Below are positions 1 through 39,775 of a DNA stretch of 64,000 nucleotides, one piece after another. Source of the DNA: an uncultured Acidobacteriota bacterium. Its GTDB lineage: Bacteria; Acidobacteriota; Thermoanaerobaculia; Multivoradales; SZUA-115. The position numbers were made by a program, and so were the translations under genes. Position 1 is the first letter of the stretch, and the number at the start of each line of letters is the position of its first letter. The notes beneath the pieces are model-generated. The model saw only the letters and a program-made list of their open reading frames with translations. It was not told the DNA's origin and did not search any database. Location: contig CAWDVR010000002.1 in the NCBI GenBank assembly GCA_963805975.1, forward strand, positions 776,543-840,542, given 5' to 3'.

Positions 1-1936
1 GATCCGAGTCCGTGCCGCCGATCGTGTCGAACCACTCGAAGACCCGCCGGACCGCCTCTTCGGTGGGCACCAGCGGCCCGGTCGCGTTGATCGCCGGGCC
101 CTCGTAGAACCACTGCAGGGTGGCCGGCGCGCCGGCCGCCGAGCTGGCGTCCGCCTGGTTGTTGGCCACCGCCGTCACGTACTCGGCGTACGAGGCATTG
201 ATCAGCCAGTCGCCGTCGCCCTTGGGATCGAAAGTGAGGCCGACGCGCGGCGAGAGCTTGGCATCGTCGATCACCTTGACGCCCTGGGCGTTCTTACCGT
301 CGTTGACGTCGTAGCGGGCACCGATGTTGAAGCTCCAGTTGTTGTTGAGCCGCCAGCCGTCGTTGACGAAGTACGAGTTGGTCACGAAGTCCGTGCCGCT
401 GGTGGTGATCAGGATCGGGTTCCACTGGATGGTGGTGAAGTTGCCGGCGCGGCCCGGGAGGATCACCGGGAAGACCTCGCCGCCCTGGATGATCCTGCCG
501 GAGAGCAGGAGGCGGAAGTCGCTGCCCGACTGGTGGTTGTCGGCGGCCCGGATGTCGTTGAAGTGGTCGTAGCCGAACACCAGGTCGTGCGAGCCGAGCT
601 TGTCGCCCGACAGGAACCAGGAGCCCTTGACCAGGTAGTTCTCGTTGTTGCGCTCCTCGTCCGGATCGCAGGCGCCGCAGAAGGTGGGGCTGTTGAAGCG
701 GTTGCCGGTGCCCTGCGGATTGTCGACCAGGAGCGTGCCGCGGATGCGGTCGGTGAACTGCGAGCCGGAGTCGACGAAGGTGAACTCGCGCTCCGAGTAC
801 TGGGCCTCGACGAAGAAGTTGCGGGTCAGGACGCCCGAGTAGTGGGCGGAGGCGAGGGTCTGCGGCAGCTCGCGGGCGTAGACGCTGGCGAGGTCGAGGA
901 CGCTGCCGAAGATCACGCCGCCGTCTTTCTCTTCGACGTCCATGTAGGAGCCCACCAGGCTGTGGCCCTCGGCCAGGCTGAAGGTCACTTTGCCCTCGAG
1001 GCGGGTCTCCGAGTCGTCGTTGGCGTAGGGAAGATTGGTGAGCACCGTCTGGGCGACGGCGCTGGTGTCGAGGTCGCGGCCGGCGAGGAAGAACCACAGC
1101 CGGTCGCGCCACAGGTAGCCGCCGAGGGTCGCCTCGTAGGTCTCGTTGATGGTGTCCGCCTGACTCACGGTGAGCGGCGTCTCGGCGCCCCAGTCCTCGT
1201 TGGTGAAGTTGGTGCGCAGCGAGCCTTCGAACTGGTTGCCGCCGGACTTGGTCAGCACGTTGACCACGCCGCCGGCGAACCGGCCGTACTCGGCCGAGAT
1301 GCCCGAAGTAGTGGTGGTGGTCTCCTGGATGGCGTCCTCGATGAAGAGGTCGTTGGGCTGGCCGCGCAGGTTCTCGTTGACCACCACGCCGTTGACCAGG
1401 AACAGGCTCTCGTAGGACTGCGCGCCCGAGATCACGATGCCGTCGGCCGGGCCGCCGGTCGAGACGCCAGGCGCCAGAGTGACGGCGCCGGCGATGTCGC
1501 GGTTGACCGGCAGCTCTTCCAGGAACACCTTCTCGTAGGTGGTCGAGGCCTGGGGCGTCTGCGAGATGGTCTCGTAGGCGCCGGTGACCATCACCTCTTC
1601 GCTGACGCCCTCGAGCGACATCGCCATGTCGAGCTGGCTCGACTGGGCGGCCGAGAGCTTGATCGTCTGCTCGGCGGTTTGGAAACCCGAGATCTCGAAC
1701 TTGACGGTGTACTCGCCGGCCGGCATGAACGGGAAGATGTAATCGCCGTTGGCCGTGGTCTGGGTGACGCGGGCGCCCTGGAGGGTCTCCGAGGTGGCGG
1801 TCACCGTCACCCCCGGCAGCGGCTGGTCGTCCGCCAGCACCCGGCCCGAAAGGGTGCCGGTGGGGTTTTGTGCAAGGGCCGGCAAGGCCACGAACGCCCC
1901 CAGCACGAGCAGGGTCCGAAACAAGGTGGATCGCAT
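1..1936 (-). CDS. TonB-dependent receptor with N-terminal carboxypeptidase-regulatory-like domain; C-terminus runs off the window (partial)
   Basis: Own translation of the minus strand in a frame absent from the ORF track, because there is no stop inside the window: MRSTLFRTLLVLGAFVALPALAQNPTGTLSGRVLADDQPLPGVTVTATSETLQGARVTQTTANGDYIFPFMPAGEYTVKFEISGFQT..., then plug/barrel-like segments (...NFTTIQWNPILITTSGTDFVTNSYFVNDGWRLNNNWSFNIGARYDVNDGK...). ATG at 1936..1934 with GGAGG 9 nt upstream. Signal peptide present. Confidence 0.85.
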   Translation of the reverse strand, partial: MRSTLFRTLLVLGAFVALPALAQNPTGTLSGRVLADDQPLPGVTVTATSETLQGARVTQTTANGDYIFPFMPAGEYTVKFEISGFQTAEQTIKLSAAQSSQLDMAMSLEGVSEEVMVTGAYETISQTPQASTTYEKVFLEELPVNRDIAGAVTLAPGVSTGGPADGIVISGAQSYESLFLVNGVVVNENLRGQPNDLFIEDAIQETTTTTSGISAEYGRFAGGVVNVLTKSGGNQFEGSLRTNFTNEDWGAETPLTVSQADTINETYEATLGGYLWRDRLWFFLAGRDLDTSAVAQTVLTNLPYANDDSETRLEGKVTFSLAEGHSLVGSYMDVEEKDGGVIFGSVLDLASVYARELPQTLASAHYSGVLTRNFFVEAQYSEREFTFVDSGSQFTDRIRGTLLVDNPQGTGNRFNSPTFCGACDPDEERNNENYLVKGSWFLSGDKLGSHDLVFGYDHFNDIRAADNHQSGSDFRLLLSGRIIQGGEVFPVILPGRAGNFTTIQWNPILITTSGTDFVTNSYFVNDGWRLNNNWSFNIGARYDVNDGKNAQGVKVIDDAKLSPRVGLTFDPKGDGDWLINASYAEYVTAVANNQADASSAAGAPATLQWFYEGPAINATGPLVPTEEAVRRVFEWFDTIGGTDSD

Positions 1937-2039
1937 GGTTTTCTGCCTCCTTTTTCGTCGCCGCTCGGCGCGGCGGGATAGTTCTATTGCGAACGCGTTC
2001 TCTTCCGCGAAGGCACCGTGTCGCTGAGCAGGGGACGTC

Positions 2040-2055
2040 TGCAAGCCCTCCGCCA
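2040..2055 (-). promoter_or_regulatory. Candidate sigma-54 (-24/-12) promoter upstream of the TonB-dependent receptor gene
   Basis: Minus-strand sequence TGGCGG-AGGGC-TTGCA has GG and GC at exactly the consensus spacing of TGGCAC-N5-TTGCA. It lies about 90 nt upstream of the receptor ATG and directly downstream of the NtrC-type regulator / histidine kinase pair. Confidence 0.45.
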
Positions 2056-2156
2056 CTGCCCAAGCTCAGTGCTATCAGGCAGTTAGAGCGCTCATAGCGG
2101 CGCCCGCTTCAACGAGTTGGATGTAGATGCAAGATGCTGAAGTGATTATAGCTTTG

Positions 2157-3488
2157 TCACGAGGAAGTCACGGGGAGGCGGAGCGTCGCCTCGCAGCCCG
2201 GACCGGTCCTGCGGTTCGCCAGCACCAGGCTGCCGCCGTGCGCCTCGGCGATCTGCCGCGACAGCACCAGGCCGATGCCGCTGCCCGCCGGCTTGGTGGT
2301 GAAGAAGGGGACGAAGAGGTTCGAGGTCTGGGGCAGGCCGGGCCCCTCGTCCTCGATCGAGAGGACGAGGGCGGCTCCTTCGCGAACCCAGGAGATGAAG
2401 ACGCCGCCACCGGTCTCGTTCGCGGCGTCCGCGGCGTTCCTCACCAGGTTGATGAGCAGTTGCTCGAGCTGGTCGGGGTCGGCGGAGAGCACCTGCTCCG
2501 GCCCCGGCTCGACCTCCACCGCGACCCTGGTCTCGAGCGTGGCGATCCGCCGCACCAGGGAGCCGATCGCCACCGGCCGGGCCTGTGGCGGCGGCAGCCT
2601 GGCCAGCCGGGAGTAAGCGCTCATGAAACGCGACAGCGCGTCCGAGCGTTGGGCGATGACGGCGAGGCCGCCGGCCATGTCCTCACGCCAGTCGTCGGCC
2701 AGCACCGGCCGGCCGAGGAGCGCCGCCAGGGTGGCGGCCATGGACTTGATCGGCGCCAGGGAGTTGTTGAGCTCGTGCCCCAGCACCCGCAGCAGCCTCT
2801 TCCACGCCTGGCGCTCCTCCTCGCGCAGGGCCTGGGAGAGGTTGGCGATCACCAGCAGGTGGTGCGGCAGCCCGCCCTCGCGGAAGCCGCTCCTCCTCAC
2901 TCCCCAGCGCCCCGAGCCGCCGGGGAAGGCGCGCTCCACGGTTCCCGCCACCTCGCCCTCCACCAGGTCGGCCAGGCCGAGCTCGGCGGCGGTCCGGCCC
3001 AGCAGCTCCTCGGGCGGCCGGGCCAGCAGGCGCTCGCCGGCCGGATTGACGAGCCGCAGCGCGAGGTCGCCGCCGAAGGTGAAGATGGCGACGTCGATCT
3101 CCTCGATGACCTTGCGCAGCAGCATGGTCGCCTCGACCGCGCCCAGGCGCTGCTCCATCAGAGTGGCGGACAGCACGTTGATCTCCCGCATCACCTCGCC
3201 CAGCACGTCGTCCGCGGCGGCGCTCCGGGCGCGCAGCGAGAAGTCCCCCTCGCGCGAGGCCTGGAGCAGGTTGGCAATGGTCTGCAAGGGGTAGACGACG
3301 CGCTTGCGCAGCAGCGCCGCCAGCCCGAACCAGAGGCAGAGGATGAAGACCGAGAGCGTCCACTGCACCTTGGGCGCATGCTCGCCGAACCACAGGAGAG
3401 CGAGCGCCACGAACGACCCCGGCAGGCCGGCGGCCAGCGCCAGCAGCAGGATGCGCGTCTCGTAGCGCGGGGCAGGTAGGCGGGGCAC
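2157..3488 (-). CDS. Sensor histidine kinase (two N-terminal TM helices, HisKA, HATPase_c)
   Basis: ORF translation contains the H-box LGHELNNSLAPIKSMAATL and G-boxes GGGVFISWV...DEGPGLP...GSGIGLVLSRQIAEAHGG. Hydrophobic N-terminus. Confidence 0.9.
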   Translation of the reverse strand: MPRLPAPRYETRILLLALAAGLPGSFVALALLWFGEHAPKVQWTLSVFILCLWFGLAALLRKRVVYPLQTIANLLQASREGDFSLRARSAAADDVLGEVMREINVLSATLMEQRLGAVEATMLLRKVIEEIDVAIFTFGGDLALRLVNPAGERLLARPPEELLGRTAAELGLADLVEGEVAGTVERAFPGGSGRWGVRRSGFREGGLPHHLLVIANLSQALREEERQAWKRLLRVLGHELNNSLAPIKSMAATLAALLGRPVLADDWREDMAGGLAVIAQRSDALSRFMSAYSRLARLPPPQARPVAIGSLVRRIATLETRVAVEVEPGPEQVLSADPDQLEQLLINLVRNAADAANETGGGVFISWVREGAALVLSIEDEGPGLPQTSNLFVPFFTTKPAGSGIGLVLSRQIAEAHGGSLVLANRRTGPGCEATLRLPVTSS

Positions 3489-3497
3489 GGCGGGAGC

Positions 3498-4856
<1,359 letters not shown>

Positions 4857-8696: not shown

Positions 8697-11128
<2,432 letters not shown>

Positions 11129-11132
<4 letters not shown>

Positions 11133-12460
11133 TCCTCGCCCGTGGCTCCCCCATCGAGCGGCACCAGCAGCCCTTCGAGTCGCGCCGCGGCCTCGTGCAG
11201 TCGGCCGAGCGCCGCCAGGTGGTCGGCCTCGGCCTGAAACCACGTGCGCTGGGCCATCAACACTTGCGGATACGCGGCCATCATCGCCTGGTAACGCTCG
11301 AGATAGGCGCGGTATGCCTGCTCGGCCCGCGGCAGGATCCCTTCCCGGTAGACCGAGACCATTCGGTGAGCCGAGCTGTACTCGGCCCAGACGTCGGCGA
11401 AGCGCCTCTCGAGCCCTCCCTCGAGCACCGTGACCTCGGCCCTGGCGCGGGCGGCTGCCGCCTCCGCCTCGGCGATCGAGCCCTGGCCGCGGTCGAAGAG
11501 CGGTAAGGGCACGCCGATCTCGAAGAACCCTTCCCAGCCCACGCGAGGCCCCTCGCGGACCACCCTCTCCCGCCCCTGGAGCGCGCCCGCGGTGATCTCC
11601 AGGTTGGGCACCGCCCGCGCTCGCACCGCCGCCAAGTCTGCCTCGGCCACGGCCAGCCGAGCCAGGGCGCCGGCACGCTCGGGACTGTCTCGGAGCACGC
11701 GCGCGCGTACCGTGGCCTCGTCGAGCCCCGGGAGCGGCGCTAGGTCCTCGGACACGCGGGCGATCTGTCGCCGAGGCTCGCCGGCGGCAGCGGCCAGGCT
11801 CGCCAGGGCGGCCGTCAGCTCGGTGCGGGTAGTCTCCTCTGCCAGGGCCACGAGCTCGGCCTCGATCTCGGCGGCGGTAAGGTCCGACTCGTCCGCGACA
11901 CCGGTGTTATAGAGCTGCCAGGCGATCTCGACCGCCTCGTCGGCGAGCCGCGAGAGCCGCGTCCGCGCGGCGAGCAGGCGCTGTGCCGTGGCTGCTCGGG
12001 CATACCCGACCCGTACCGCCGTCAGGGCCGCGAGCCTCGTCCTCTCGGCCTGGGCCTCGAGCTCGACCACGCGCGCCTCGGCGGCCTTGCGACCCTTGGC
12101 GAGCTTTCCCCCGAGAACGAGCTCCTGCTCGACGAAGAAGCCGTAGCGCGCCGTGTCTTCACGACCGGATTCGAGCGAGATGTCCTCACCCGCGACGCCC
12201 AGAGTCGGATTGGGCCATAGGCCGGCCTGCAACCGGGCCCCCCGACCGCCGCGCTCGGCTGCGGCAGCGGCCGCCAGCGCGGGATGGTTGTCGAGCACCA
12301 GCGATTCGAGCTCGGCGAGCGTGGTCACGGGTCCGGCCGGGGCCTCCACCGGCGCCGCCCGGGGTGCCGGGTGATGGTGCTCGTGCTGCGCCGTGGCCGT
12401 CTCTGTCGCGAAGGCCGCGATGCAGAGGACGGCCGCGGTGGTCCGCCCCCACCTGTTCAC
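11129..12460 (-). CDS. TolC-like outer membrane efflux protein (OEP family) with His-rich N-terminus
   Basis: Real reading frame is the C-terminal 443 aa of the track ORF 11129..13549: signal peptide (M)[24 protein letters not shown], then HEHHHP, then long coiled-coil/OEP-like repeats. GTG start at 12460 overlaps the multicopper-oxidase stop (GTGA). Confidence 0.75.
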
Positions 12461-13764
12461 CGGCCACCGCCGTGCGAATGGCCTTCGTGCCCGCTCGCCG
12501 GCGGCGGCTCCACCGCCTCCGCCTTGAGGGCCAGGATGCGGTCGTACATCTCCGGCTCGAGCACCCGCACCAGGGTCATCATGCCCATCATGGCGCCCGT
12601 CCAGGTCGGCCTCAGGCCCAACGTCTCGGGCTTCTCGACCGCCTTGTCCATCGCCATGAACATGTCCTGCGGGTAGCCGGGCACGGTGCGCGCGTTCGGT
12701 GCGGGCGGGTGGAAAGACATCGCGTGCTCGGCGCCCGGCTCGGTGAGCGGTCCGACCATCGTGGTCATGTGGTTCATCATGTGGTGCGGCAGGTGGCAGT
12801 GGAGCATCCAGTCGCCGGCGTGCCTGGCCTCGAACTCCACGTCCCGCGCCTGCGCCACCCCCACGATCTCGGTGTTGCCCGGCTTCCACGCCGAGCGCGG
12901 GATGCGCCCGCCCTCCGTCCCCGTCACCCACCAGGTGTTGCCGTGGAGGTGGATGGGGTGGTGGTCCATGCCGAGGTTGATCATCCGGATCCGTACCCGC
13001 TCGCCCTTCTTGACCAGCATCGGTGTGGTCGCGGGCCCGGACTTGCCGTTGAAGGTCAGCCAGTTGAACTCCATGGCCAGGGTGTTGGGCGTCTGGTTGT
13101 TGGGCAGGATCGCCCACTCCTGGAGAGCGATGCCGAAGTCGCGCTGGCAGAGCGGCGCATGAGGCCTGGCGGGATGGATGATGAAGAAGCCTAAGGCACC
13201 CATCATCTCCTGCATCGGAAAATGGGAGTGGTAGAAGAAGGTGCCGTTCTGCCGCACCGTGAACTCGTACACGTAGCGGCCGCCGGGGGCGATGGGGTCG
13301 ACCCCCAGGCCCGGCACGCCGTCCTGCAGCATCGAGACCTCGAGGCCGTGCCAGTGGACGGCGGTCTCTTCCGGCAGGTGGTTGTCGACCACGAAGCGCA
13401 GGCGGTCGCCCTCCACCACTTCGATCGTCGGCCCCGGCACCGAGCCGTTGTAGCCCCAGAGGTTGAACGGCTGGCGCCAGGGCAGAAACCGCTGCTTCAC
13501 CACCTCGCAGCGGAGGTGAAACTCCTTGGCGCCGTCCACCCACCGCCACGGCAGCTTGGCCACGTCCGGCGTCTCGACCGGCACGTAACCGAGCTTGCTC
13601 GCGTCGGCGGCTTTGGGTGGCGGCGGATCAGAGGGTGCGGGGTGGTGGCCCTCGTGCTGCGGCTCCGCCTGCGCGAGGCCGCGGACGGTCGCCAGCCCGG
13701 CCGCAGCCAGCGCGCCGCCACGCAGGAAGTCGCGGCGGTTACTCTCTCGCCGGTTACTGGCCAC
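12457..13764 (-). CDS. Multicopper oxidase (CopA/CueO-like) with Tat signal and Met/His-rich segments
   Basis: Tat motif SNRRDFLRGGALAAAGLA. Copper ligand motifs HWHG, HSHF, HPIHLHG, HCHLPHHMMNHM. Met-rich stretches (MFMAMDK, MMGMM). C-terminal GHEGHSHGGG. Start tentatively GTG at 13764; the ATG at 13848 would overlap the upstream gene by about 95 nt. Confidence 0.85.
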   Translation of the reverse strand: MASNRRESNRRDFLRGGALAAAGLATVRGLAQAEPQHEGHHPAPSDPPPPKAADASKLGYVPVETPDVAKLPWRWVDGAKEFHLRCEVVKQRFLPWRQPFNLWGYNGSVPGPTIEVVEGDRLRFVVDNHLPEETAVHWHGLEVSMLQDGVPGLGVDPIAPGGRYVYEFTVRQNGTFFYHSHFPMQEMMGALGFFIIHPARPHAPLCQRDFGIALQEWAILPNNQTPNTLAMEFNWLTFNGKSGPATTPMLVKKGERVRIRMINLGMDHHPIHLHGNTWWVTGTEGGRIPRSAWKPGNTEIVGVAQARDVEFEARHAGDWMLHCHLPHHMMNHMTTMVGPLTEPGAEHAMSFHPPAPNARTVPGYPQDMFMAMDKAVEKPETLGLRPTWTGAMMGMMTLVRVLEPEMYDRILALKAEAVEPPPASGHEGHSHGGGR

Positions 13765-14161
13765 CCTTGCCGCCGGAGAGCGCCGCCGCGTACTCGTCGA
13801 AGGTCTTCTGGCTCTCGAAGTAGAAGACCGTGCCGTCCTCGAGCGCACCGATCACCGCCATGGCCTTGTCGACCGGCTTGCCGGTCACCGGATCGACGGC
13901 GCTACGGCTCGCCGCGTCCTTGGCCAGGCGCTCTTTGCACATCTCGCAGCAGCCGTAGTAGGTCTTGTGGTCGAACTCGACCGGGATCTGGTCCTTGCTG
14001 AACACCGCGTTGTTGACCATGCAGACCTTCTTGGCCTCGACGCGGGTGAGCTTGCCCTGCGCCGGCTGGGAGGCGGTGGCAGTGTCGGAAGCCGAGGCGG
14101 TCGTCGCCGCGAGCAGGCAGAAGACGAGCGAGGCTGCGAACAGAATGCGATGAGTCTTCAT
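13754..14161 (-). CDS. Periplasmic tandem YHS/TRASH-like domain protein (putative copper-binding)
   Basis: ATG at 14161 with AAGGAG SD. Signal peptide MKTHRILFAASLVFCLLAATTASA. First repeat KKVCMVNNAVF...KTYYGCCEMCKERL resembles the YHS pattern. Second repeat DPVTGKPVDK...GTVFYFESQKTFDEY is a Cys-less YHS-like copy. Confidence 0.75.
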   Translation of the reverse strand: MKTHRILFAASLVFCLLAATTASASDTATASQPAQGKLTRVEAKKVCMVNNAVFSKDQIPVEFDHKTYYGCCEMCKERLAKDAASRSAVDPVTGKPVDKAMAVIGALEDGTVFYFESQKTFDEYAAALSGGKGGQ

Positions 14162-15553: not shown

Positions 15554-17383
15554 TCACCAGCCGCACACCCGTCCTCTGTTCTGCTCGTCGAGCCAGGTCT
15601 TGAGCGGCGCGAAGTAATCGAGGATCGCCGTGGCGTCCATCTGCCGCTCGCCGGAGAGCGCTTCGAGGGCCTCCGGCCAGGGCCGCGAGCTGCCCATGGC
15701 GAGCATCTTCTCGAGCTTCTCGCCGGCCGCTTTGTTGCCGTAGATCGAGCCGCGATGGAGCGGCCCCTGGCAGCCGGCCGTCGCGCAGAGCGCGCGGTGG
15801 AACTGGAACTGGAGGATGTCGGCGAGGAAGTAGCGCGTGTACGGCACGTTGCCCGGCACATGGAACTTGGAGCCGGGGTCGAAGTCCGCTTCGCTCCTCG
15901 CCACCGGCGGCTCGATGCCCTGGTACTTGCGCACCAGCTCCCACCACGAGCGGTTGTAGTCGGCGGGCTTGATCTCGCCCGAGAACACCTTCCAGCGCCA
16001 CTGGTCGATGAGCAGCCCGAAGGGCAGGAAGGCCACCTTGTCGAGCGCGCGCTGCATCAGGAGGCCGAGGTCCTTCGACGGATCGGGCTCGTTCGGGATC
16101 AGGCCGATGTCCTTGAGGTACTTGGGGGTCACCGACAGCGCGACGGTGTCGCCCACGGCCTCGTGGAAGCCGTCGTTGGCGCTGTCGCGATAGAGGTGCG
16201 GCTGGTGCTTGTAGGCGCGCTGGTAGAAGTTGTGCCCCAGCTCGTGATGGATGGTCGAGAAGTCCTCCTCGTCGATGCCGATGCACATCTTGATGCGCAG
16301 GTCGTCCTCGGCGTCGATGTCCCAGGCGCTCGCGTGGCAGATCACCTCGCGATCCGGCGGGCGCACGAACATCGAGCGTTCCCAGAAGGTCTGCGGCAGG
16401 GGATCGAAGCCCAGCGAGGTGAAGAAGCGCTCGCCGGAGCGCACCATCTCCTTCTCGTCGTACTTGGCGGCCCTGAGCGCCGCCGTCAGGTCGAAGCCGG
16501 GGTCGGCGTCGGCGGGCCCCACCAGCGAGTAGATGCCCTGCCAGTCCTGGGCCCACATGTTGCCCAGGAGGTGGGCGGGGATCGGCCGGTCTGGCGGCAC
16601 CAGCTTGGTGCCGTAGTGCTCGCCGAGCTTGGCCCGCACGTGGCAATGGAGAGCGTCGTAGAGCGGCTTGACCTGGCCCCACAGCCGGTCGAGCTCCGCC
16701 CCGAAGTCGTCCGGCGGCATGTCGTAGGCCGAGCGCCACAGGGCGCCGACGTCCGGGTAGCCCAGCTCGCGGGCGCCTTGGTTGGAGATCTGGACCAGGC
16801 GTTCGAACTCGGGCCGCATGGGCGGCGACACCGTGCGCCAGCCCACCCAGATGTCCTGGAGCTCGGCAGGGTCGCGGCCCTCCCACATCATGCGCTCCAT
16901 GACGTCGAGCGTCAGGCACTCGCCGTTCGGCTTGCAGTACTTGCCACTCCCGAAGCGCGAGTTGAGGGAGGCGGCGAGACGCGCCAGCTCGGAGCCCAGG
17001 GCCGGGTCGGAAGGCGCCGGCAGGACGAGCCCGCGCTTCAGGATCTCGAGCTTGCGCCGCACGTCGTAGGGCAGCTCGAGCCCGTTGAAGCGCGCCGCCT
17101 GCTTGGCGATCTCGACGCCCGCCGCGGTCACGCGCTCGCTGGCGAGGGCGCCCAGGATCTCGGTGTCGTGGGTGATGTGCGTCTCCTGCACCCAGGCGGC
17201 GCGCTGCGCCTCCTCCGCGAGGCCGGCCAGCCGCTTCTCCGCCGCCTCGGCGAAGGCCTGGGCCTCCTGGGCGGTGGGCGCCGGGGCGGCGCCCGCCTTC
17301 ACCTTGTCTGCACCGAGAGCGGCCAACGCCGGCACCAGCGTCAGGCAGGCCGAGAGCACCAAGAGAATCTGGAATCGGGTCAT
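15554..17383 (-). CDS. M2-family zinc peptidyl-dipeptidase (angiotensin-converting-enzyme-like), secreted
   Basis: HEXXH zinc motif HHELGHNFYQ plus downstream EAVGDTVALS. Signal peptide. Length and motif order match bacterial ACE homologues. Confidence 0.85.
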   Translation of the reverse strand: MTRFQILLVLSACLTLVPALAALGADKVKAGAAPAPTAQEAQAFAEAAEKRLAGLAEEAQRAAWVQETHITHDTEILGALASERVTAAGVEIAKQAARFNGLELPYDVRRKLEILKRGLVLPAPSDPALGSELARLAASLNSRFGSGKYCKPNGECLTLDVMERMMWEGRDPAELQDIWVGWRTVSPPMRPEFERLVQISNQGARELGYPDVGALWRSAYDMPPDDFGAELDRLWGQVKPLYDALHCHVRAKLGEHYGTKLVPPDRPIPAHLLGNMWAQDWQGIYSLVGPADADPGFDLTAALRAAKYDEKEMVRSGERFFTSLGFDPLPQTFWERSMFVRPPDREVICHASAWDIDAEDDLRIKMCIGIDEEDFSTIHHELGHNFYQRAYKHQPHLYRDSANDGFHEAVGDTVALSVTPKYLKDIGLIPNEPDPSKDLGLLMQRALDKVAFLPFGLLIDQWRWKVFSGEIKPADYNRSWWELVRKYQGIEPPVARSEADFDPGSKFHVPGNVPYTRYFLADILQFQFHRALCATAGCQGPLHRGSIYGNKAAGEKLEKMLAMGSSRPWPEALEALSGERQMDATAILDYFAPLKTWLDEQNRGRVCGW

Positions 17384-33336: not shown

Positions 33337-33567
33337 TCAGGCGCGGCCAGCGAGGCTCTTGACCGTCTCGGAGACCTGGGCGCCCTTGCTCACCCAGTAG
33401 TCGTAGCGCTCGCGGTCGAGCTTGACCTCGGCCGGCTTGCGCTCGGGATCGTAGTGGCCGATCTGCTCGACGGCCGCGGCCCTGGGGGTGCGGCGGCTGT
33501 CAGAGACCACCACCCGGTAGAAGGCGCGGTTGGTGGTGCCGGTGCGCCGCAGTCGAATCGTCAACAT
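33337..33567 (-). CDS. rpsP: 30S ribosomal protein S16
   Basis: MLTIRLRRTGTTNRAFYRVVVSDSRRTPR...YDPE. Start at the internal ATG 33567 with GGAGG SD. The ORF-track N-terminal extension is spurious. Confidence 0.93.
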   Translation of the reverse strand: MLTIRLRRTGTTNRAFYRVVVSDSRRTPRAAAVEQIGHYDPERKPAEVKLDRERYDYWVSKGAQVSETVKSLAGRA

Positions 33568-33713
33568 GGCTTTGGAAGGACCTCCGGGGGTTGTTTCGAC
33601 GCACGGCGAGCGTTCCGCCCAGCCGCGCGAAGCGTCGGATGCTACCAGGAAGCCGGACCAGGCGCCAGTCCCGGGCGGGCTCGGCGGCCCGGAGAGCATG
33701 TTACGCTGTCGCC

Positions 33714-35606
33714 ATGACCAAACGTCTCACGACTCCCATGGTTCGCGACCGGCGCGGAGCGCCGCTCCGGCCGGCGACCTGGGACGAGGCGTTGGATCGA
33801 GCCGCCGCCGGCCTCTCCTCCGTGGTGGAGGCCCGCGGCCCGCGCGCTTTCGGGCTCTTCAGCTGCTCGAAGGCGACGAACGAGATGAACTACGCGGCGG
33901 GCAAGTTCGCGCGCGCGGTCATCGGCTCGAACAACGTCGACAGCTGCAACCGCACCTGACACGCCCCGAGCGTCGCCGGTCTGGCGACTGTGTTCGGAGC
34001 GGGTGGCGGCACGAGCTCCTACCAGGAGATCGAAGAGACGAGTTGTATCTTGCTGTGGGGCTCGAACGCGCGGGAGACGCACCCGATCTTCTTCCACCAT
34101 CTGCTGAAGGGCATGAGAAACGGCGCCCGCCTCTACACGATCGACCCGCGCCGCACCTCCTCGGCCGCCTGGGCCGACCTGTGGGCCGGGCTCGAGGTGG
34201 GCACGGACATCGCGCTCGCCCACACCATGGCGCGGGAGATCATCGCCGCCGGGCTCGTCAACCAGGAGTTCGTCGAGCACGCGACCAGCGGCTTCGAGGC
34301 CTATCGTGAGTCAGTCGAGCCCTGGACTCTGGAGCGCGGCGCGGCCGAGACCGGCGTGCCGGCGGCGGTGATCCGCGAGATCGCCCACGCCTACGCCCAG
34401 GCGCCCCGCGCCATGATCTGCTGGACGCTCGGCATCACCGAGCACCACAACGCGGTCGACAACGTGGTGTCGCTCATCAACCTCTCGCTGCTCACCGGCC
34501 ACGTCGGCCGCTACGGCTCGGGGCTCAACCCGCTCCGGGGCCAGAACAACGTCCAGGGCGGCGGCGACATGGGGGCGCTCCCCGACCGCCTGCCCGGCTT
34601 CCAGCACCTGGAGAACGCGCCGCTGCGCGAGAAGTTCGAGGCCGCCTGGGGCGCCAGGATCCCGCCGCAGGGCGGCTGGCACCTCTCGGGGATGTTCGAC
34701 GCCATGGAACGCGGCGAGCTCACCGCCCTCTACGTGATCGGCGAGAACCCGTTGCGCTCCGAGGCGGACCAGCACCGGGCGAGGAAGCTGCTCGAGGGCC
34801 TCGAGTGCCTGATCGTGCAGGACGTGGTCGAGACCGCCACCTCCGAGATTGCGGACGTGGTGCTGCCGGCGGCGGCGGGCTGGTGCGAGTCCGAAGGTAC
34901 TGTCACCTCGAGCGAGCGGCGGGTGCAGCGGGTGCGTCGCGCCCTGCCGCCGCCGGCCGGCGCCCGCGACGACCTCGAGATCATCTTCGGCCTGGCCAAC
35001 CGCCTGGGCAAGAGCTGGGGCGAGCCCGACCCCGAGGCGCTCTGGAACGAGCTGCGGACCGTCTCCCCCATGCACGCCGGCATGAGCTATGCGCGGCTCG
35101 AGGCCGAGGGCGGCATCCAGTGGCCCTGCTACGACGACCACCACCCGGGCGAGCTCTTCCTGCACAGCCGGCTCTGGGAGCGGCCGGTGAAAGGGCCGCG
35201 GGCGCCCTTCAGCGTGGTCGAGCACGACCTGCCGGTCGACCGCCTGGACGACGATTTCCCGATGCGCCTCACCACCGGCCGCCGGCTCGAGGAGTACAAC
35301 ACCGGCGTGCAGACGGCGGGCTACAGCTCGCCGGTGCGCCGCGGCGAGACCCTGGACCTCTCCCCCGAGGATGCCGTGCGGCTGGGTTTCGCCGAGGGCG
35401 AGAGGGCGCGTGTCTCGTCGCGCCGCGGCAGTGTCGAGGCGCCGGTGCACATCGACCCCGCCCTGCGGCCGGGGCTGTCGTTCATGACCTTCCACTTCCC
35501 CGAGGAAGTGCCCACCAACCTCCTCACCATCGATGCCACGGACCCGCGCTCCGGCACGGCGGAGTTCAAGGCGACGGCGGTCCGCATCGAGCGCCCAGAG
35601 GCCTGA
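33714..35606 (+). CDS. fdhA: Formate dehydrogenase catalytic (Mo/W-bisPGD) subunit, selenocysteine-containing; the in-frame TGA at 33957..33959 is read as Sec; lacks the usual N-terminal Fe-S domains (split gene)
   Basis: Two track ORFs, 33591..33959 and 33990..35606, are in the same frame separated by a single TGA. The junction reads NVDSCNRT-[TGA]-HAPSVAGL, homologous to E. coli FdhF ...CARV-U-HGPSVA. The N-terminus MTKRLTTPMVRDRRG aligns to the FdhF region after its 4Fe-4S domain. Confidence 0.85.
33966..33997 (+). ncRNA. SECIS-like hairpin, about 12 nt downstream of the UGA; apical loop GGUCU
   Basis: Stem gcgtcgcc / ggcgac, 6 bp, closing the loop ggtct (33978..33982), plus a possible lower stem ccga/tcgg. 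Distance and GGUC loop resemble the E. coli fdhF SECIS. Confidence 0.6.
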
Positions 35607-35609
35607 GCC

Positions 35610-37538
35610 TTGGACATCCGGGTCACCGGCGCCGAGCCGAGCGCGGAGGAGCGGGCGGCGGTCGATCGACTGCTCGGGCCGGCGCCTTCGAGCTGGGAGG
35701 GCGGGGAGCGGGGCCGGGGTGAGGACGCGCGGTCCGCTCGCGCCGGCTTCCACGAGTCCCGCGAGCGGCGGGACCTGCTGCTGCCGGCGCTCCACGCCGT
35801 GCAGGACCGCGTGGGCTGGATCAGCGAGGGCGCGCTCAACTACATTTGCCTGCGGCTGATCGTGCCGCCCGCCGAGGCCTGGGGCGTGGTGAGCTTCTAC
35901 CACCTGTTCGCGACCGAGCCCCGGCCGCCGCTGGTGGTCCACGTCTGTGACGACCTCGCCTGCCGGCTCCACGGCGCGGAGCGGCTGTGCACAGCTCTCG
36001 AGCACTCGGCAGGGCCGGAGCGAGCGCCGCTCGCCGGCGGCCGCACCACCTGGCAGCGCAGCCCCTGCCTCGGCCAGTGCGAGCGCGCCCCGGCGGTGCT
36101 GGTCCAGACCGCCGGCGAGGCGCCGCACGCCGAGGTGCTGGCCCCGGTGGCGGAGGCGGACGTGCTCGGTGCTCTCGGCCTCGCCCTGGACCGAGTGCAA
36201 GTACCTGCCGCCGGAAATGACCTGGAGGCAGTGCCGGATCGCCTCGCCGCAGCGCGCGTGTCCACACCCCAGGCGGGAAGCGACGGCCTGCGGCTCCTCG
36301 CCCGGGTCGGCGTGGTCGACCCCGAGAGCCTCGAGGCCTACCGCGCGAGCGGCGGCTATCAGGCCCTCGCCCGCGCCCTGGAGCTGGGACCCGCGGGCGT
36401 GACCGGAGAGGTGCTGGCCTCGAAGCTCCTGGGCCGCGGCGGCGCCGCCTTCCCCACCGGCCGCAAGTGGCAGGCGGTGGCCGCGGCCCCGGCCCTGCCG
36501 CGCTACCTGGTGTGCAATGCCGACGAGTCCGAGCCCGGCACGTTCAAGGACCGGGTATTGCTCGAGGAAGACCCCTTCGCGGTCGTCGAGTCGATGACGA
36601 TCGCGGCTTTCGCCTGCGGCTGCGAGCGCGGCTTCGTCTACCTGCGCGGCGAGTACCCTCTCGCCCACCGGCGCTTGGATAACGCCATCGCCGCGGCACG
36701 GCAGGCCGGTCTCCTGGGCGACGACGTGGCCGGTTCGAGCTTCCGCTTCGATCTCGAGATCCGCCGCGGCGCTGGCGCCTACATCTGCGGCGAGGAGACG
36801 GCGCTCTTCAACTCGATCGAGGGCAAGCGCGGCGAGCCGCGCTCGAAGCCGCCGTTCCCCAGCGAGTTCGGCCTGTTCGGCAAGCCGACGGTGGTCAACA
36901 ACGTCGAGACCCTGGCCAACGTGCCCTGGGTCCTGCGCGAAGGCGGCGCGGCCTTCGCCGCGCTCGGCAGCGGCGGCTCGACCGGCAGCAAGCTGTTCTG
37001 CGTCTCCGGCCACGTCACCCGGCCGGGTCTCTACGAGGTGCCGTTCGGCACCACGCTGGGAGAGCTGCTGGAGCTGGCGGGCGGGGTCGCCGGGGGGCGA
37101 AGCCTCGCGGCCATCCTCTTGGGCGGGGCCGCGGGCGCCTTCGTGGGGCCGGAGGCTCTCGCCACCCCTCTCACCTTCGAAGGCACCCGCGCCGCGGGCG
37201 CCACGCTCGGCTCGGGCGTGGTGCTGGTCTACGACGAGACCGCCGACTTGGGCGACGCCCTGCTGCGCGTCGCGAGCTTCTTCCGGCACGAGTCCTGCGG
37301 CCAGTGCGTGCCCTGCCGGGTGGGCACCGTGCGCCAGGAAGAGCTGCTCCAGCGCTTGCGCCGAGCCCGGCCCCTGGGCTCGCGGGCCGAGGAGCTGGCG
37401 CTCTTTGCCGAGCTCTCGCAGGCGATGCGCGACGCCTCGATCTGCGGCCTCGGCCAAACCGCCTCCTCCGCCATCGAGTCCGCCCTCGCCCGCTTCGATC
37501 CCTTCCCTGCCGCCCCTCCCTTTGGAGCGCAGCCGTGA
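35610..37538 (+). CDS. NAD(H)-binding formate dehydrogenase beta/gamma fusion (NuoE-like 2Fe-2S thioredoxin-fold + NuoF-like FMN/NADH/4Fe-4S)
   Basis: NuoE-like CDDLACRLHG...SPCLGQCERAP. NuoF-like GGAAFPTGRKW, CNADESEPGTFKDR, ESCGQCVPCRVGT. Confidence 0.9.
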   Translation: MDIRVTGAEPSAEERAAVDRLLGPAPSSWEGGERGRGEDARSARAGFHESRERRDLLLPALHAVQDRVGWISEGALNYICLRLIVPPAEAWGVVSFYHLFATEPRPPLVVHVCDDLACRLHGAERLCTALEHSAGPERAPLAGGRTTWQRSPCLGQCERAPAVLVQTAGEAPHAEVLAPVAEADVLGALGLALDRVQVPAAGNDLEAVPDRLAAARVSTPQAGSDGLRLLARVGVVDPESLEAYRASGGYQALARALELGPAGVTGEVLASKLLGRGGAAFPTGRKWQAVAAAPALPRYLVCNADESEPGTFKDRVLLEEDPFAVVESMTIAAFACGCERGFVYLRGEYPLAHRRLDNAIAAARQAGLLGDDVAGSSFRFDLEIRRGAGAYICGEETALFNSIEGKRGEPRSKPPFPSEFGLFGKPTVVNNVETLANVPWVLREGGAAFAALGSGGSTGSKLFCVSGHVTRPGLYEVPFGTTLGELLELAGGVAGGRSLAAILLGGAAGAFVGPEALATPLTFEGTRAAGATLGSGVVLVYDETADLGDALLRVASFFRHESCGQCVPCRVGTVRQEELLQRLRRARPLGSRAEELALFAELSQAMRDASICGLGQTASSAIESALARFDPFPAAPPFGAQP

Positions 37539-38443
37539 GCACCGACCCGATCTGGTTCAACCCGGCCCCGCCGCCGTCTCGCGTGCCGGCGGCGCCGCCC
37601 CGCGCGCCACGACCGCAGGTGGAGCTCTCGATCGACGGCCAGGCGGTCACCGTGGAGCAGGGCGCGACCGTGCTCGAGGCCTGCCGGAAAGCCGGCGTCG
37701 AGGTGCCGACCCTCTGCTACCTGGAGACGCTCACGCCGGTCAACGCCTGCCGCCTCTGCGTGGTGGAGCAGGAAGGCGCGAGGGTGCTGGTGCCGGCCTG
37801 CTCGCGCAAGGCCGAGCCGGGGATGAAGATCCACACCAACTCGGAGCGCGTGCGGCTGTCGCGCAAGCTGGTGCTGGAGCTCCTGGGCTCGTCAGTCGAT
37901 CTCTCGACCGCTCCCGGCCTGGCCGAGACCATGGCCGAGTATGGCGCCCGCCCGGAGCGCTTCGGCACCGGTGCCACCGTGGCGCAGCCGCCCAAGATCG
38001 ACAACGACCTCTACGTGCGTGACTACGGCAAGTGCGTGCTTTGCTACAAGTGCGTGGAGGCCTGCGGCTACGACGCCCAGAACACCTTCGCCATCGCCGT
38101 GGCCGGCCGCGGCTTCGACGCCCACATCTCGACCGAGTGGGACGTGCCGCTGCCCACCTCGGCCTGCGTCTACTGCGGCAACTGCATCGCCGTCTGCCCC
38201 ACCGGGGCGCTGATGGCGAGCCCCGAGTTCGAGCTGCGCCGCGAAGGAAAATGGGACGAGTCCCGCCAGACGAAGACCGACACCATCTGCGGCTACTGCG
38301 GCGTGGGCTGCACCCTCACCCTGCACGTCCAGGACGAGCGCATCGTCAAGGCCACCTCGCCCTTCGAGAACTCCGTGACGCAGGGCAATCTTTGCGTCAA
38401 GGGCAGGTTCGGGTTCGAGTTCGTGCAGAAAGGGCGGGGCTAG
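37535..38443 (+). CDS. Fe-S subunit equivalent to the N-terminal part of FdsA/NuoG (2Fe-2S ferredoxin + 4Fe-4S clusters + MopB-type 4Fe-4S domain), encoded separately and downstream
   Basis: GTG start at 37535 overlaps the upstream stop (GTGA). CYLETLTPVNACRLCVV, CVLCYKCVEAC, CVYCGNCIAVCP, and C-terminal ICGYCGVGCTL...NLCVKGRFGFEFVQ, which is the MopB 4Fe-4S motif that normally directly precedes the LTxP region of the catalytic domain. Confidence 0.85.
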   Translation: MSTDPIWFNPAPPPSRVPAAPPRAPRPQVELSIDGQAVTVEQGATVLEACRKAGVEVPTLCYLETLTPVNACRLCVVEQEGARVLVPACSRKAEPGMKIHTNSERVRLSRKLVLELLGSSVDLSTAPGLAETMAEYGARPERFGTGATVAQPPKIDNDLYVRDYGKCVLCYKCVEACGYDAQNTFAIAVAGRGFDAHISTEWDVPLPTSACVYCGNCIAVCPTGALMASPEFELRREGKWDESRQTKTDTICGYCGVGCTLTLHVQDERIVKATSPFENSVTQGNLCVKGRFGFEFVQKGRG

Positions 38444-38453
38444 CTAGCCGCCC
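38432..38453. terminator. Palindromic hairpin GGGCGGGGCTAG/CTAGCCGCCC spanning the abutting convergent stop codons (TAG of the Fe-S gene, CTA = TAG of ffh); the TTTCT tail on the minus side suggests a terminator at least for ffh
   Basis: Read directly from the sequence. Confidence 0.45.
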
Positions 38454-39775
38454 AGCGCCCGCTTCAGCCAGCTTCCCTTGACGCCCTTGAGCATCTTGCG
38501 CATGCCCTTGTACTGCTTCAGGAGCTTGTTGATGTCCTGGACGGTGGTGCCGGAGCCCTGGGCGATGCGCCGCTTGCGGCTGCCGTCCAAGAGCTGAGGC
38601 AGGCGGCGCTCGCGGGCGGTCATCGAGTTGACGATCGCCTCGACGCGCTGCAACTGGCTCTCGTCCACGTTGGCGGCGTCGAGCCCCTTGAGCGGCCCCA
38701 CCTTGGGCATCAGCTCCATCACCTGGCCCAAGGGCCCCATCTTCCGCAACTGGCGGAGCTGATCGCGCAGGTCCTCGAGCGTGAACTCGCGGGAGATCAG
38801 GCGCTTGGCCAGGCGCTCGGTCTCGCCCGAGTCGAGCCCCTTTTCGGCCTTCTCGATCAGCGACAGCACGTCGCCCATGCCGAGCATGCGCGAGGCGATG
38901 CGGTCCGGGTGGTAGAGCTCCAGGTCGTCGGCCTTCTCGCCCATGCCGACGTAGCGGATCGGCACCTGGGCAACAGTACGGATCGAGAGCGCCGCTCCGC
39001 CGCGGCTGTCGCCGTCGAGCTTGGTCAGGATGACGCCGGTGAGCGGGAGCTGCTCGGCGAACTCCTGGGCGCTCTTGACCGCGTCCTGGCCGGTCATGGC
39101 GTCGGCCACGAAGAGGGTCTCGGAGGGCTTGATGAGCTCGGCCAGCGCGCGGATCTCCTGCATCAGCGCCGCGTCCACGTGCAGGCGGCCGGCGGTGTCG
39201 ACGATCACTACGTCGTGGCCGCGGTCCTTCGCCTCGCGGATGGCACGGGGAGCGAGCTCGAGCACCGTCTCGCCCGGCTGCGGTGTCGCCACCGCCACTC
39301 CCACCCCGGCCCCCACCTGCCGGAGCTGCTCGACGGCCGCGGCGCGCTGCAGGTCGCCGGCCACCAGCAACGGGTGGCGGCCGCGGGCCTTGAGCTGCTT
39401 GGCGAGCTTGCCGGCGGTGGTGGTCTTGCCCGAGCCCTGGAGGCCGCAGAGCATGACCACCGTGGGACGGCCGTCGAGCTTGAGCTCGGCCCCGGCACCG
39501 GGGCCGCCCAGGAGCTCGATCAGCTCGTCGCGGACGATCTTGATCACCTGCTGGGCGCCCGACAGGCTGGCCAGCACCTCCTGGCCCTCGGCCCGCTCGC
39601 GCACGCGGTCGATGAACGGCTTGACCACACGCACGTGGACGTCCGCCTCGAGGAGCGCCAGGCGCACCTGGCGCAGCGCCCCGGCCAGCACGTCGGCGGA
39701 GATGCGGCCCTCACCCCGAAGCTGGTGAAAGACCTCTTGCAGCTTGCCCTGGAGACCGTCGAACATGGATTGCAC
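38444..39775 (-). CDS. ffh: Signal recognition particle protein Ffh
   Basis: GLQGSGKTTTAGKLA, DTAGRL, TKLDGDSRGGAALS, Met-rich M-domain. Start may be the internal MFDGLQ. Confidence 0.95.
   Translation of the reverse strand: MQSMFDGLQGKLQEVFHQLRGEGRISADVLAGALRQVRLALLEADVHVRVVKPFIDRVRERAEGQEVLASLSGAQQVIKIVRDELIELLGGPGAGAELKLDGRPTVVMLCGLQGSGKTTTAGKLAKQLKARGRHPLLVAGDLQRAAAVEQLRQVGAGVGVAVATPQPGETVLELAPRAIREAKDRGHDVVIVDTAGRLHVDAALMQEIRALAELIKPSETLFVADAMTGQDAVKSAQEFAEQLPLTGVILTKLDGDSRGGAALSIRTVAQVPIRYVGMGEKADDLELYHPDRIASRMLGMGDVLSLIEKAEKGLDSGETERLAKRLISREFTLEDLRDQLRQLRKMGPLGQVMELMPKVGPLKGLDAANVDESQLQRVEAIVNSMTARERRLPQLLDGSRKRRIAQGSGTTVQDINKLLKQYKGMRKMLKGVKGSWLKRALGG

Follow-up and report, generated by a model that had tools for sequence, protein, structure and literature searches.

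Does the single in-frame UGA in a predicted formate dehydrogenase gene of an uncultured Acidobacteriota bacterium end the protein, or is it read as selenocysteine (Sec)? The gene lies in a 64-kb stretch of contig CAWDVR010000002.1, the whole of which is called the window below, and is the first of a cluster of three genes on the forward strand. The UGA, at position 33957, is most probably decoded as Sec with the help of a functional bacterial selenocysteine insertion sequence (SECIS), a reading to which a probability of about 90% is assigned here.

The UGA and its reading frame

The catalytic gene and its UGA are located as follows.

33714-35606, forward strand: gene for the predicted catalytic subunit of formate dehydrogenase, named 'fdhC', with a molybdenum or tungsten (Mo/W) bis-pyranopterin guanine dinucleotide (bisPGD) cofactor; 630 codons including Sec82
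33957-33959, forward strand: in-frame UGA, read as selenocysteine (Sec82), the putative Mo/W ligand, on the evidence of the alignment with U140 of E. coli FdhF and of conservation among orthologues

Translation of the frame 33714-35606 gives 630 codons with a lone internal stop, the TGA of codon 82 (33957-33959). The mechanical list of open reading frames (ORFs) places one ORF on either side of it in the same frame, at 33591-33959 and 33990-35606, and both results reproduce the first-pass annotation of this DNA, which had described two same-frame ORFs split by one TGA. The peptide around codon 82 is IGSNNVDSCNRT*HAPSVAGLATVFGAGGG, where the asterisk stands for the TGA, and its core reads CNRT-U-HAPSVAGL.

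The domains detected by Pfam in the catalytic subunit are solely Molybdopterin (PF00384, 214 bits, E 3.6e-63) and Molydop_binding (PF01568, 88 bits, E 5.2e-25). Its top matches in the PDB are all formate dehydrogenases, with E values from 1e-139 to 1e-108, and include the FdhF subunit of the hydrogen-dependent CO2 reductase, E. coli FDH-H, an F420-dependent formate dehydrogenase, R. capsulatus FdsA and M. extorquens FDH1. Aligned pairwise, the subunit and E. coli FdhF are 39% identical over 622 residues; the alignment spans FdhF residues 58-686 and pairs U82, H83 and R275 with U140, H141 and R333, so that the UGA falls on U140 as the first-pass annotation had anticipated. Because these three residues align, the active site can be assigned to the U-H ... 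R-G-Q type, the motif U82-H83 ... R275-G-Q matching U140-H141 and R333-G-Q of the E. coli enzyme; motif classes of the form 'C/U-H ... R-G-Q' have been described for formate dehydrogenase active sites (PMC8808070). Pfam finds no Molybdop_Fe4S4 domain, which would hold the FS0 [4Fe-4S] cluster, in the catalytic subunit, and the alignment shows no equivalents of FdhF Cys8, 11, 15 and 42. The product of 33714-35606 is predicted to be the catalytic subunit of a cytoplasmic Mo- or W-dependent formate dehydrogenase, the activity towards formate being part of the same prediction.

Relatives of the gene were collected from a scan of species-representative genomes (one genome per species), which returned at least 598 of them. 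The orthologue counts given below refer to the best 80 loci of these, and the 81-sequence alignments consist of the 80 orthologous loci and the window. The window's own genome is not in the set scanned, where the best match to its gene reaches 82%. The 80 loci are labelled Acidobacteriota, Chloroflexota, Rokubacteria/Methylomirabilota, Planctomycetota and Gaiellales, and their tblastn matches cover residues 2-630, running across the TGA. A TGA occupies the homologous codon in every one of them, within NN[IVL]DSCNRT*HAPS. A homology search also recovered full-length homologues of 635-645 residues at 65-68% identity, mostly from Saccharopolyspora; in the Saccharopolyspora proteins Cys (TGC) takes the Sec position, in CNRT-C-HAPSVAGL. 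Judged from these sequences, the alternation of Sec and Cys at codon 82 constitutes a classical Sec/Cys pair. The invariant TGA and the Cys of the homologues together bear out the earlier proposal that CNRT-[UGA]-HAPSVAGL is the Sec site of a formate dehydrogenase.

The public annotation implies a different reading, in which the TGA is a true stop and the locus is a pseudogene or two independent fragments of 81 and 538 residues. The public call for the window gene (P0241) has 538 residues, starts after the UGA and is without the active-site Sec and His. Gene callers have treated the closest homologues likewise: approximately 100 of them (75-92% identity, among P0001-P0120) are annotated as proteins of ~535-566 residues, or 81-85% of the query, called from just past the TGA. 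A GTG at 33990 is available as a start, and no Sec machinery is encoded in the window. A true stop is nevertheless difficult to reconcile with a TGA and a frame that are kept in 80 of 80 species across phyla, or with homologues that have Cys at the UGA position. The 538-residue fragment would be devoid of the Sec and His of the active site and of the first ~90 residues of the Mo domain. The GTG that opens it (33990, codon +11) is a start codon in only 36 of the 81 sequences, GTC being found in 24 and GTT in 11, and since this is fewer than half, independent initiation is not conserved. The ratio of nonsynonymous to synonymous substitution rates (dN/dS) relative to the nearest relative (L084, 92% identical) is 0.21 over the 70 codons before the UGA and 0.17 over the 549 codons after it; a value of ~0.2 on both sides indicates that the two parts are translated in frame and are under the same constraint. 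The first-pass annotation had itself named a TGA separating independently expressed fragments as the outcome that would speak against Sec, and three findings go against this outcome: the conservation of TGA and frame, the dN/dS values and the missing active site of the 538-residue product. A true stop at codon 82 is regarded as extremely unlikely, and decoding of the UGA as Sec accounts for the frame as it stands.

Global reassignment of UGA was also considered and ruled out, as TGA is the usual stop of the window, terminating 24 of its 36 predicted genes, the catalytic gene included.

The hairpin and the machinery that would read it

The RNA element proposed to direct the decoding lies immediately downstream.

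33972-33988, forward strand: putative minimal bacterial SECIS hairpin, stem GUCGCC/GGCGAC, loop GGUCU, on the evidence of RNAalifold and of frozen synonymous sites

A bacterial SECIS was taken to be an ORF-internal stem-loop just 3' of the UGA, with its apical loop ~16-37 nt away and G/U in the loop, and the hairpin at 33972-33988 has this position and this loop. It begins 12 nt past the UGA, its arms occupy 33972-33977 and 33983-33988, and the loop GGUCU starts 18 nt after the UGA; the 6-bp stem and GGUCU loop of the first-pass annotation are thus confirmed exactly. When the 45 nt that follow the UGA are folded, the hairpin is the centre of the minimum-free-energy structure (-23.5 kcal/mol, z = -2.93 relative to shuffled sequences). 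In the 81 sequences, RNAalifold applied to the 60 nt from the UGA returns it as the sole consensus structure, with 100% of cells paired. Three of its pairs vary, through 33 changes that are each one-sided and wobble-compatible, none of them disruptive, and the 17-nt sequence is identical to that of the window in 45 of the 80 orthologues.

The decisive evidence comes from the synonymous sites. The alignment contains 357 columns with a conserved degenerate amino acid, and their mean codon entropy is 1.10 bits. Zero entropy is found in just three of them, Val+5 (GTC), Leu+8 (CTG) and Ala+9 (GCG), all within the hairpin. The glycine codon of the loop (+7) is GGT in 76 of the 81 sequences, while nearby glycines are mostly GGC and GGT is otherwise non-preferred; the codons that flank the hairpin (+2 to +4 and +10, +11, +13) vary freely. 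In two Cys-type Saccharopolyspora genes, which encode the same peptide, S-V-A-G-L-A is written GTG, GCT/GCG, GGG/GGC, CTG and GCC, and these codons break the two outer pairs of the six and remove the GGU loop. The frozen codons point to a constraint on the hairpin that acts at the RNA level, beyond the protein code.

The position of the loop is that of the E. coli fdhF SECIS, as the first-pass annotation had claimed. The frame after the UGA is ungapped between the two genes (U-H-x-P-S-V-A-G-L), which puts GGUCU at the same distance, and GGUCUG has the same offset from the UGA in both. Numbered from the U of the UGA, the G and U of the loop are bases 23 and 24, and the E. coli element likewise has G23 and U24 in its apical loop, two bases essential for SelB binding there. 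Of the Rfam families, the bacterial SECIS family SECIS_3 (RF01989) scores highest here, matching in the right orientation and over its full length (33954-34015, model positions 1-59) from the UGA onward.

Several observations weigh against a functional SECIS read as Sec. Perfect hairpins with a 6-bp stem and a 5-nt loop number 49 per strand in this window of 70% G+C, and for this reason the hairpin taken alone is weak evidence; it is the comparison among orthologues that lifts it above coincidence. There are no two-sided (compensatory) changes in the 81 sequences, since the stem is nearly invariant, which means that covariation statistics and the shuffle control say nothing either way. The hairpin overlaps the highly conserved peptide SVAGLA, and its conservation is in part protein-driven. 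The synonymous-site contrast with Cys-type genes comes from only two closely related Saccharopolyspora sequences. With 18.4 bits, where the gathering threshold is 63, and E = 0.088 in a search of 201 nt, the SECIS_3 match is far too weak for membership of the family by Rfam's criterion; at the gathering threshold Rfam finds nothing in the window. Finally, tblastn with the E. coli proteins detects no selA, selB or selD in the 64-kb window.

The first-pass annotation had likewise stated that selA, selB, selC and selD are missing from the window, and its statement holds: besides the tblastn result, ARAGORN and Rfam find no tRNA-Sec (selC), and Pfam finds nothing selenium-related among the 38 window ORFs. 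The machinery is encountered at the orthologous loci. Of the 80 loci, 25, almost all from Chloroflexota, have a tRNA-Sec called by ARAGORN no more than 10 kb upstream of the orthologous gene, and Rfam model RF01852 confirms it in each of the five loci tested (68-73 bits against a gathering threshold of 47). The E. coli proteins, used as tblastn queries, identify selA in 23 of the 80 loci, selB in 22 and selD in 27. The 17-nt hairpin is identical to that of the window in 24 of the 25 selC-linked loci, so that the RNA element co-occurs with the machinery that reads it. By analogy with these loci, the organism of the window presumably has the Sec machinery elsewhere in its genome.

The selC-linked Chloroflexota loci (L012, at 51-4489, L017, L046, L048, L077 and 20 more) are islands of Sec machinery and selenoprotein genes, in which selB, selA, tRNA-Sec and selD lie directly upstream of the formate dehydrogenase cluster.

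One homologue, on a farmland soil contig from ENA (L086, 170-2107; protein P0070), has CGA (Arg) where the TGA stands elsewhere. Its hairpin is kept and carries a compensatory change from a C-G to a U-A stem pair (GUCGUC/GACGAC). The CGA may be a recent mutation from TGA, a sequencing error or the mark of an inactive copy.

Translation through the UGA might also insert a residue other than Sec, namely Cys, delivered by a selC* tRNA-Cys with a SelB-like factor, or Trp, Cys or Arg through near-cognate read-through. This would agree with Cys being functional at the position in homologues, with the CGA of the metagenomic homologue above, whose hairpin persists, and with the selC* tRNA-Cys opal suppressors of some anaerobic bacteria (PMC5389517). 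Those suppressors, however, have been reported in Firmicutes, Thermodesulfobacteria, Nitrospirae and Proteobacteria and not in the phyla found here (PMC5389517). The tRNA-Sec of the orthologous loci, recognized by Rfam, has as neighbours the genes for Sec synthase (selA) and selenophosphate synthetase (selD), two enzymes required solely for Sec, and unassisted read-through would leave the frozen hairpin unexplained. Recoding to a non-Sec residue is very improbable, and Sec is retained as the residue at codon 82.

The split three-gene module and its setting

Two further genes on the same strand complete the cluster.

35610-37538, forward strand: NuoE-NuoF fusion of 642 residues with predicted 2Fe-2S, flavin mononucleotide (FMN)/nicotinamide adenine dinucleotide (NAD(H)) and 4Fe-4S sites, equivalent to FdsG plus FdsB, on the evidence of Pfam and PDB matches
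37535-38443, forward strand: Fe-S protein of 302 residues, equivalent to the N-terminal third of FdsA/NuoG, on the evidence of Pfam and of the FdsA match

The NuoE-NuoF fusion contains the Pfam domains 2Fe-2S_thioredx, Complex1_51K, SLBB and NADH_4Fe-4S, and its PDB matches include the formate dehydrogenase beta subunits 6vw7_B, 6tg9_B and 7e5z_B. The Fe-S gene, whose GTG start overlaps the nuoEF stop (GTGA), contains Fer2_4, Fer4_7, Fer4 and Molybdop_Fe4S4, the last at residues 323-375 of a 379-residue ORF. The protein would thus have one 2Fe-2S site and a pair of 4Fe-4S ferredoxin motifs, and would end in the Molybdop_Fe4S4 (FS0) domain that is missing from the catalytic subunit. Residues 22-296 of the Fe-S protein match residues 18-302 of R. 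capsulatus FdsA, and residues 4-625 of the catalytic subunit match FdsA residues 308-931. By these alignments the two proteins are the halves of an FdsA-type alpha subunit, cut at the boundary between FS0 and the Mo domain. The gene order is permuted, with the Mo/Sec subunit first, nuoEF second and the N-terminal Fe-S part last.

The first-pass annotation had labelled the protein a selenocysteine formate dehydrogenase of FdhF type. The selenocysteine formate dehydrogenase stands; the FdhF-type (FDH-H) label does not, because the FS0 [4Fe-4S] domain is encoded two genes downstream. The enzyme is predicted to be a split formate dehydrogenase of the FdsABG/NuoEFG type. It is FdsABG-like and probably NAD+-linked, the acceptor being suggested by the NuoF-type domain alone.

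The same architecture is found in the relatives. The order catalytic gene-nuoEF-Fe-S gene is complete in 64 loci, and eight more reach nuoEF before the contig ends; nuoEF is thus downstream of the catalytic gene in 72 loci, and six loci end too early to tell. The exceptions are L052 and L066 (10001-21866), which have the Sec-type catalytic gene and, in the downstream sequence covered, which is 10 kb for L066, neither nuoEF nor the Fe-S gene. Cys-type Saccharopolyspora has the same three-gene order and split. Since orthologues and Cys-type Saccharopolyspora share the order, the split is an old and stable feature that owes nothing to misassembly or gene decay. The searchable literature yielded no account of this split, permuted architecture; the mycobacterial Sec-containing formate dehydrogenase of PMC13449736 is a different, FdoG-type enzyme.

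In many of the selC-linked Chloroflexota loci, 1-6 kb of other genes lie between the catalytic gene and nuoEF. In the window, a single codon separates the catalytic stop (TGA, 35604-35606) from the TTG start of nuoEF at 35610, which is in frame with it. The segment 35604-35612 was examined as a second recoding site and ruled out, as the spacing varies from 6 to >200 nt in orthologues. A search of the window for other selenoprotein genes gave two same-frame gene junctions and no candidates, and its three other coincidences of a TGA with a hairpin are all out of frame.

The proposed mechanism begins with SelB, which, loaded with guanosine triphosphate (GTP) and Sec-tRNA(Sec), would bind the loop of the hairpin as the ribosome reaches the UGA. 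Delivery of selenocysteine by SelB would yield a protein of 630 residues in which Sec82, next to His83 and Arg275, binds the metal, and this subunit would then receive Mo- or W-bisPGD. It would dock to the 302-residue Fe-S protein, the C-terminal FS0 cluster of which would be supplied in trans next to the pterin. The Fe-S chain would carry electrons from formate to the FMN of the NuoEF fusion, from which NAD+ would receive them, and the reverse reaction may also be possible. The assembled product is probably an FdsABG-like, NAD+-linked formate:CO2 oxidoreductase. For the organism of the window we infer Sec insertion, SelB binding, assembly of the complex and the use of NAD+ as acceptor from the genes and their relatives.

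The cluster is bordered by two genes that lie outside the system.

33337-33567, reverse strand: rpsP (ribosomal protein S16), left neighbour, divergent, outside the system, by the Pfam match Ribosomal_S16
38444-39775, reverse strand: ffh (SRP54), right neighbour, convergent, outside the system, by the Pfam matches SRP54, SRP_SPB and SRP54_N

The forward-strand cluster is placed between ffh and a run of rpsP, a KH-domain gene, rimM, trmD, rplS and rnhB, all on the reverse strand as is ffh. The ATG of rpsP is at 33567, with GGAGG ahead of the start, and at 38440-38447 (CTAGCTAG) the stop of the Fe-S gene directly adjoins that of ffh, with no intergenic space. The genes ffh and rpsP are often adjacent in bacteria. 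Neither is found within 10 kb of any of the 80 orthologous loci, from which it follows that the placement is particular to the window's genome. The cluster looks like a genome-specific insertion between ffh and rpsP. The G+C content at third codon positions of the catalytic gene is 0.95, which matches the neighbouring genes. The named relatives of the alanyl-tRNA synthetase encoded in the window come from metagenome-assembled genomes of Thermoanaerobaculia (Acidobacteriota), at 67-69% identity, which hints at an acidobacterial origin but is no proof of it.

This placement bears on the proposal that the window's lineage has lost the Sec machinery, in which case the intact TGA and SECIS would be a recent relic and no full-length protein would be made. 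The location between ffh and rpsP, seen in this genome alone, is atypical and may reflect a recent acquisition, and the machinery is itself inferred for this genome, none of it being in the 64-kb window. Yet purifying selection has acted on both halves of the catalytic gene since its divergence from the nearest relative (dS 0.2-0.3), which would be difficult to account for in a gene whose protein can no longer be produced. The gene has no frameshift or extra stop, both partner genes are intact, and the third-position G+C agrees with that of the neighbours. Loss of the machinery is a highly improbable account, and a UGA still decoded as Sec is preferred.

ARAGORN reported a tRNA-Ala(cgc) of 82 nt on the reverse strand within the catalytic gene (34331-34412); it has no Rfam tRNA match and no counterpart call in orthologues, and was rejected as a false positive. 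Elsewhere in the window, a protein of 609 residues (15554-17383, reverse strand) is a full-length match to Peptidase_M2, the angiotensin-converting enzyme family (E = 1e-220), and near its gene are a multicopper oxidase (12457-13848) and a copper/heavy-metal P-type ATPase (8697-11243).

The Sec-type split form has at least 598 matches in species-representative genomes, from soil and groundwater Acidobacteriota, Chloroflexota, Rokubacteria, Planctomycetota and Actinobacteria. The selB-selA-selC-selD island of Chloroflexota, the ffh/rpsP insertion of the window and this wide spread suggest a mobile module. It is a tentative and rather doubtful proposal that the module represents a distinct, biochemically uncharacterised class of NAD-linked formate dehydrogenase that is mobile and is the main or only reason for these organisms to keep the Sec trait. 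As the public calls of ~538 residues are without the active site, formate oxidation and dependence on selenium may be overlooked or wrongly scored when the metabolism of these abundant, uncultured soil lineages is reconstructed. The conserved split at the FS0/Mo boundary is in addition a natural experiment for the engineering of metal-dependent formate dehydrogenases for CO2 reduction, pointing to a catalytic Mo/Sec module whose production and maturation can proceed apart from the electron-transfer module.

Comparison with known systems

E. coli FdhF, which shares with the window subunit the active-site motif and the distance from the UGA to the loop, differs from it in its domains and in its partners. 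FdhF carries its own N-terminal [4Fe-4S] domain (Cys8, 11, 15 and 42), whereas the window subunit is without one, and FdhF is a monomer that docks to hydrogenase 3, while the predicted partners in the window are NuoEF-like and NuoG-like. The stem sequence of the E. coli fdhF SECIS is also different, and its bulged U17 is here predicted to be paired with A31.

The domain inventory is the same as in FdsABG (R. capsulatus 6tg9, C. necator 6vw7) and the tungsten-containing FDH1 of M. extorquens (7e5z, 7vw6), and NuoE plus NuoF of the window matches FdsG plus FdsB. FdsA, however, is a single polypeptide in FdsABG, and in the window its equivalent is distributed over two genes separated by nuoEF. 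The NuoE-NuoF fusion presumably has a parallel in the 572-residue beta subunit of M. extorquens, which is among the PDB matches. To our knowledge, the characterised FdsABG and FDH1 enzymes use Cys as the metal ligand, where the window has the predicted Sec. No FdsC/FdhD or FdsD gene was seen beside the cluster in the window.

Cys-type Saccharopolyspora, represented by S. antimicrobica (RBXX01000002.1), has a catalytic subunit that is 65-68% identical over its full length, with Cys (TGC) in place of Sec and no SECIS-type codon pattern. The S. antimicrobica cluster (L085, 1-17908) differs in its surroundings, where it adjoins an oxalyl-CoA decarboxylase-like thiamine pyrophosphate enzyme, a formyl-CoA transferase-like member of CoA-transferase family III and FdhD. 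This context hints at a role in disposing of oxalate-derived formate. An ADP-forming CoA ligase gene is also present in the same neighbourhood.

Formate dehydrogenase is the commonest bacterial selenoprotein, and the finding is therefore not surprising in itself. Compared with these systems, the locus contains an ordinary kind of selenoprotein gene with the well-known arrangement of a UGA and a hairpin, and its only unusual feature is the architecture, that is, the split alpha subunit and the permuted gene order.

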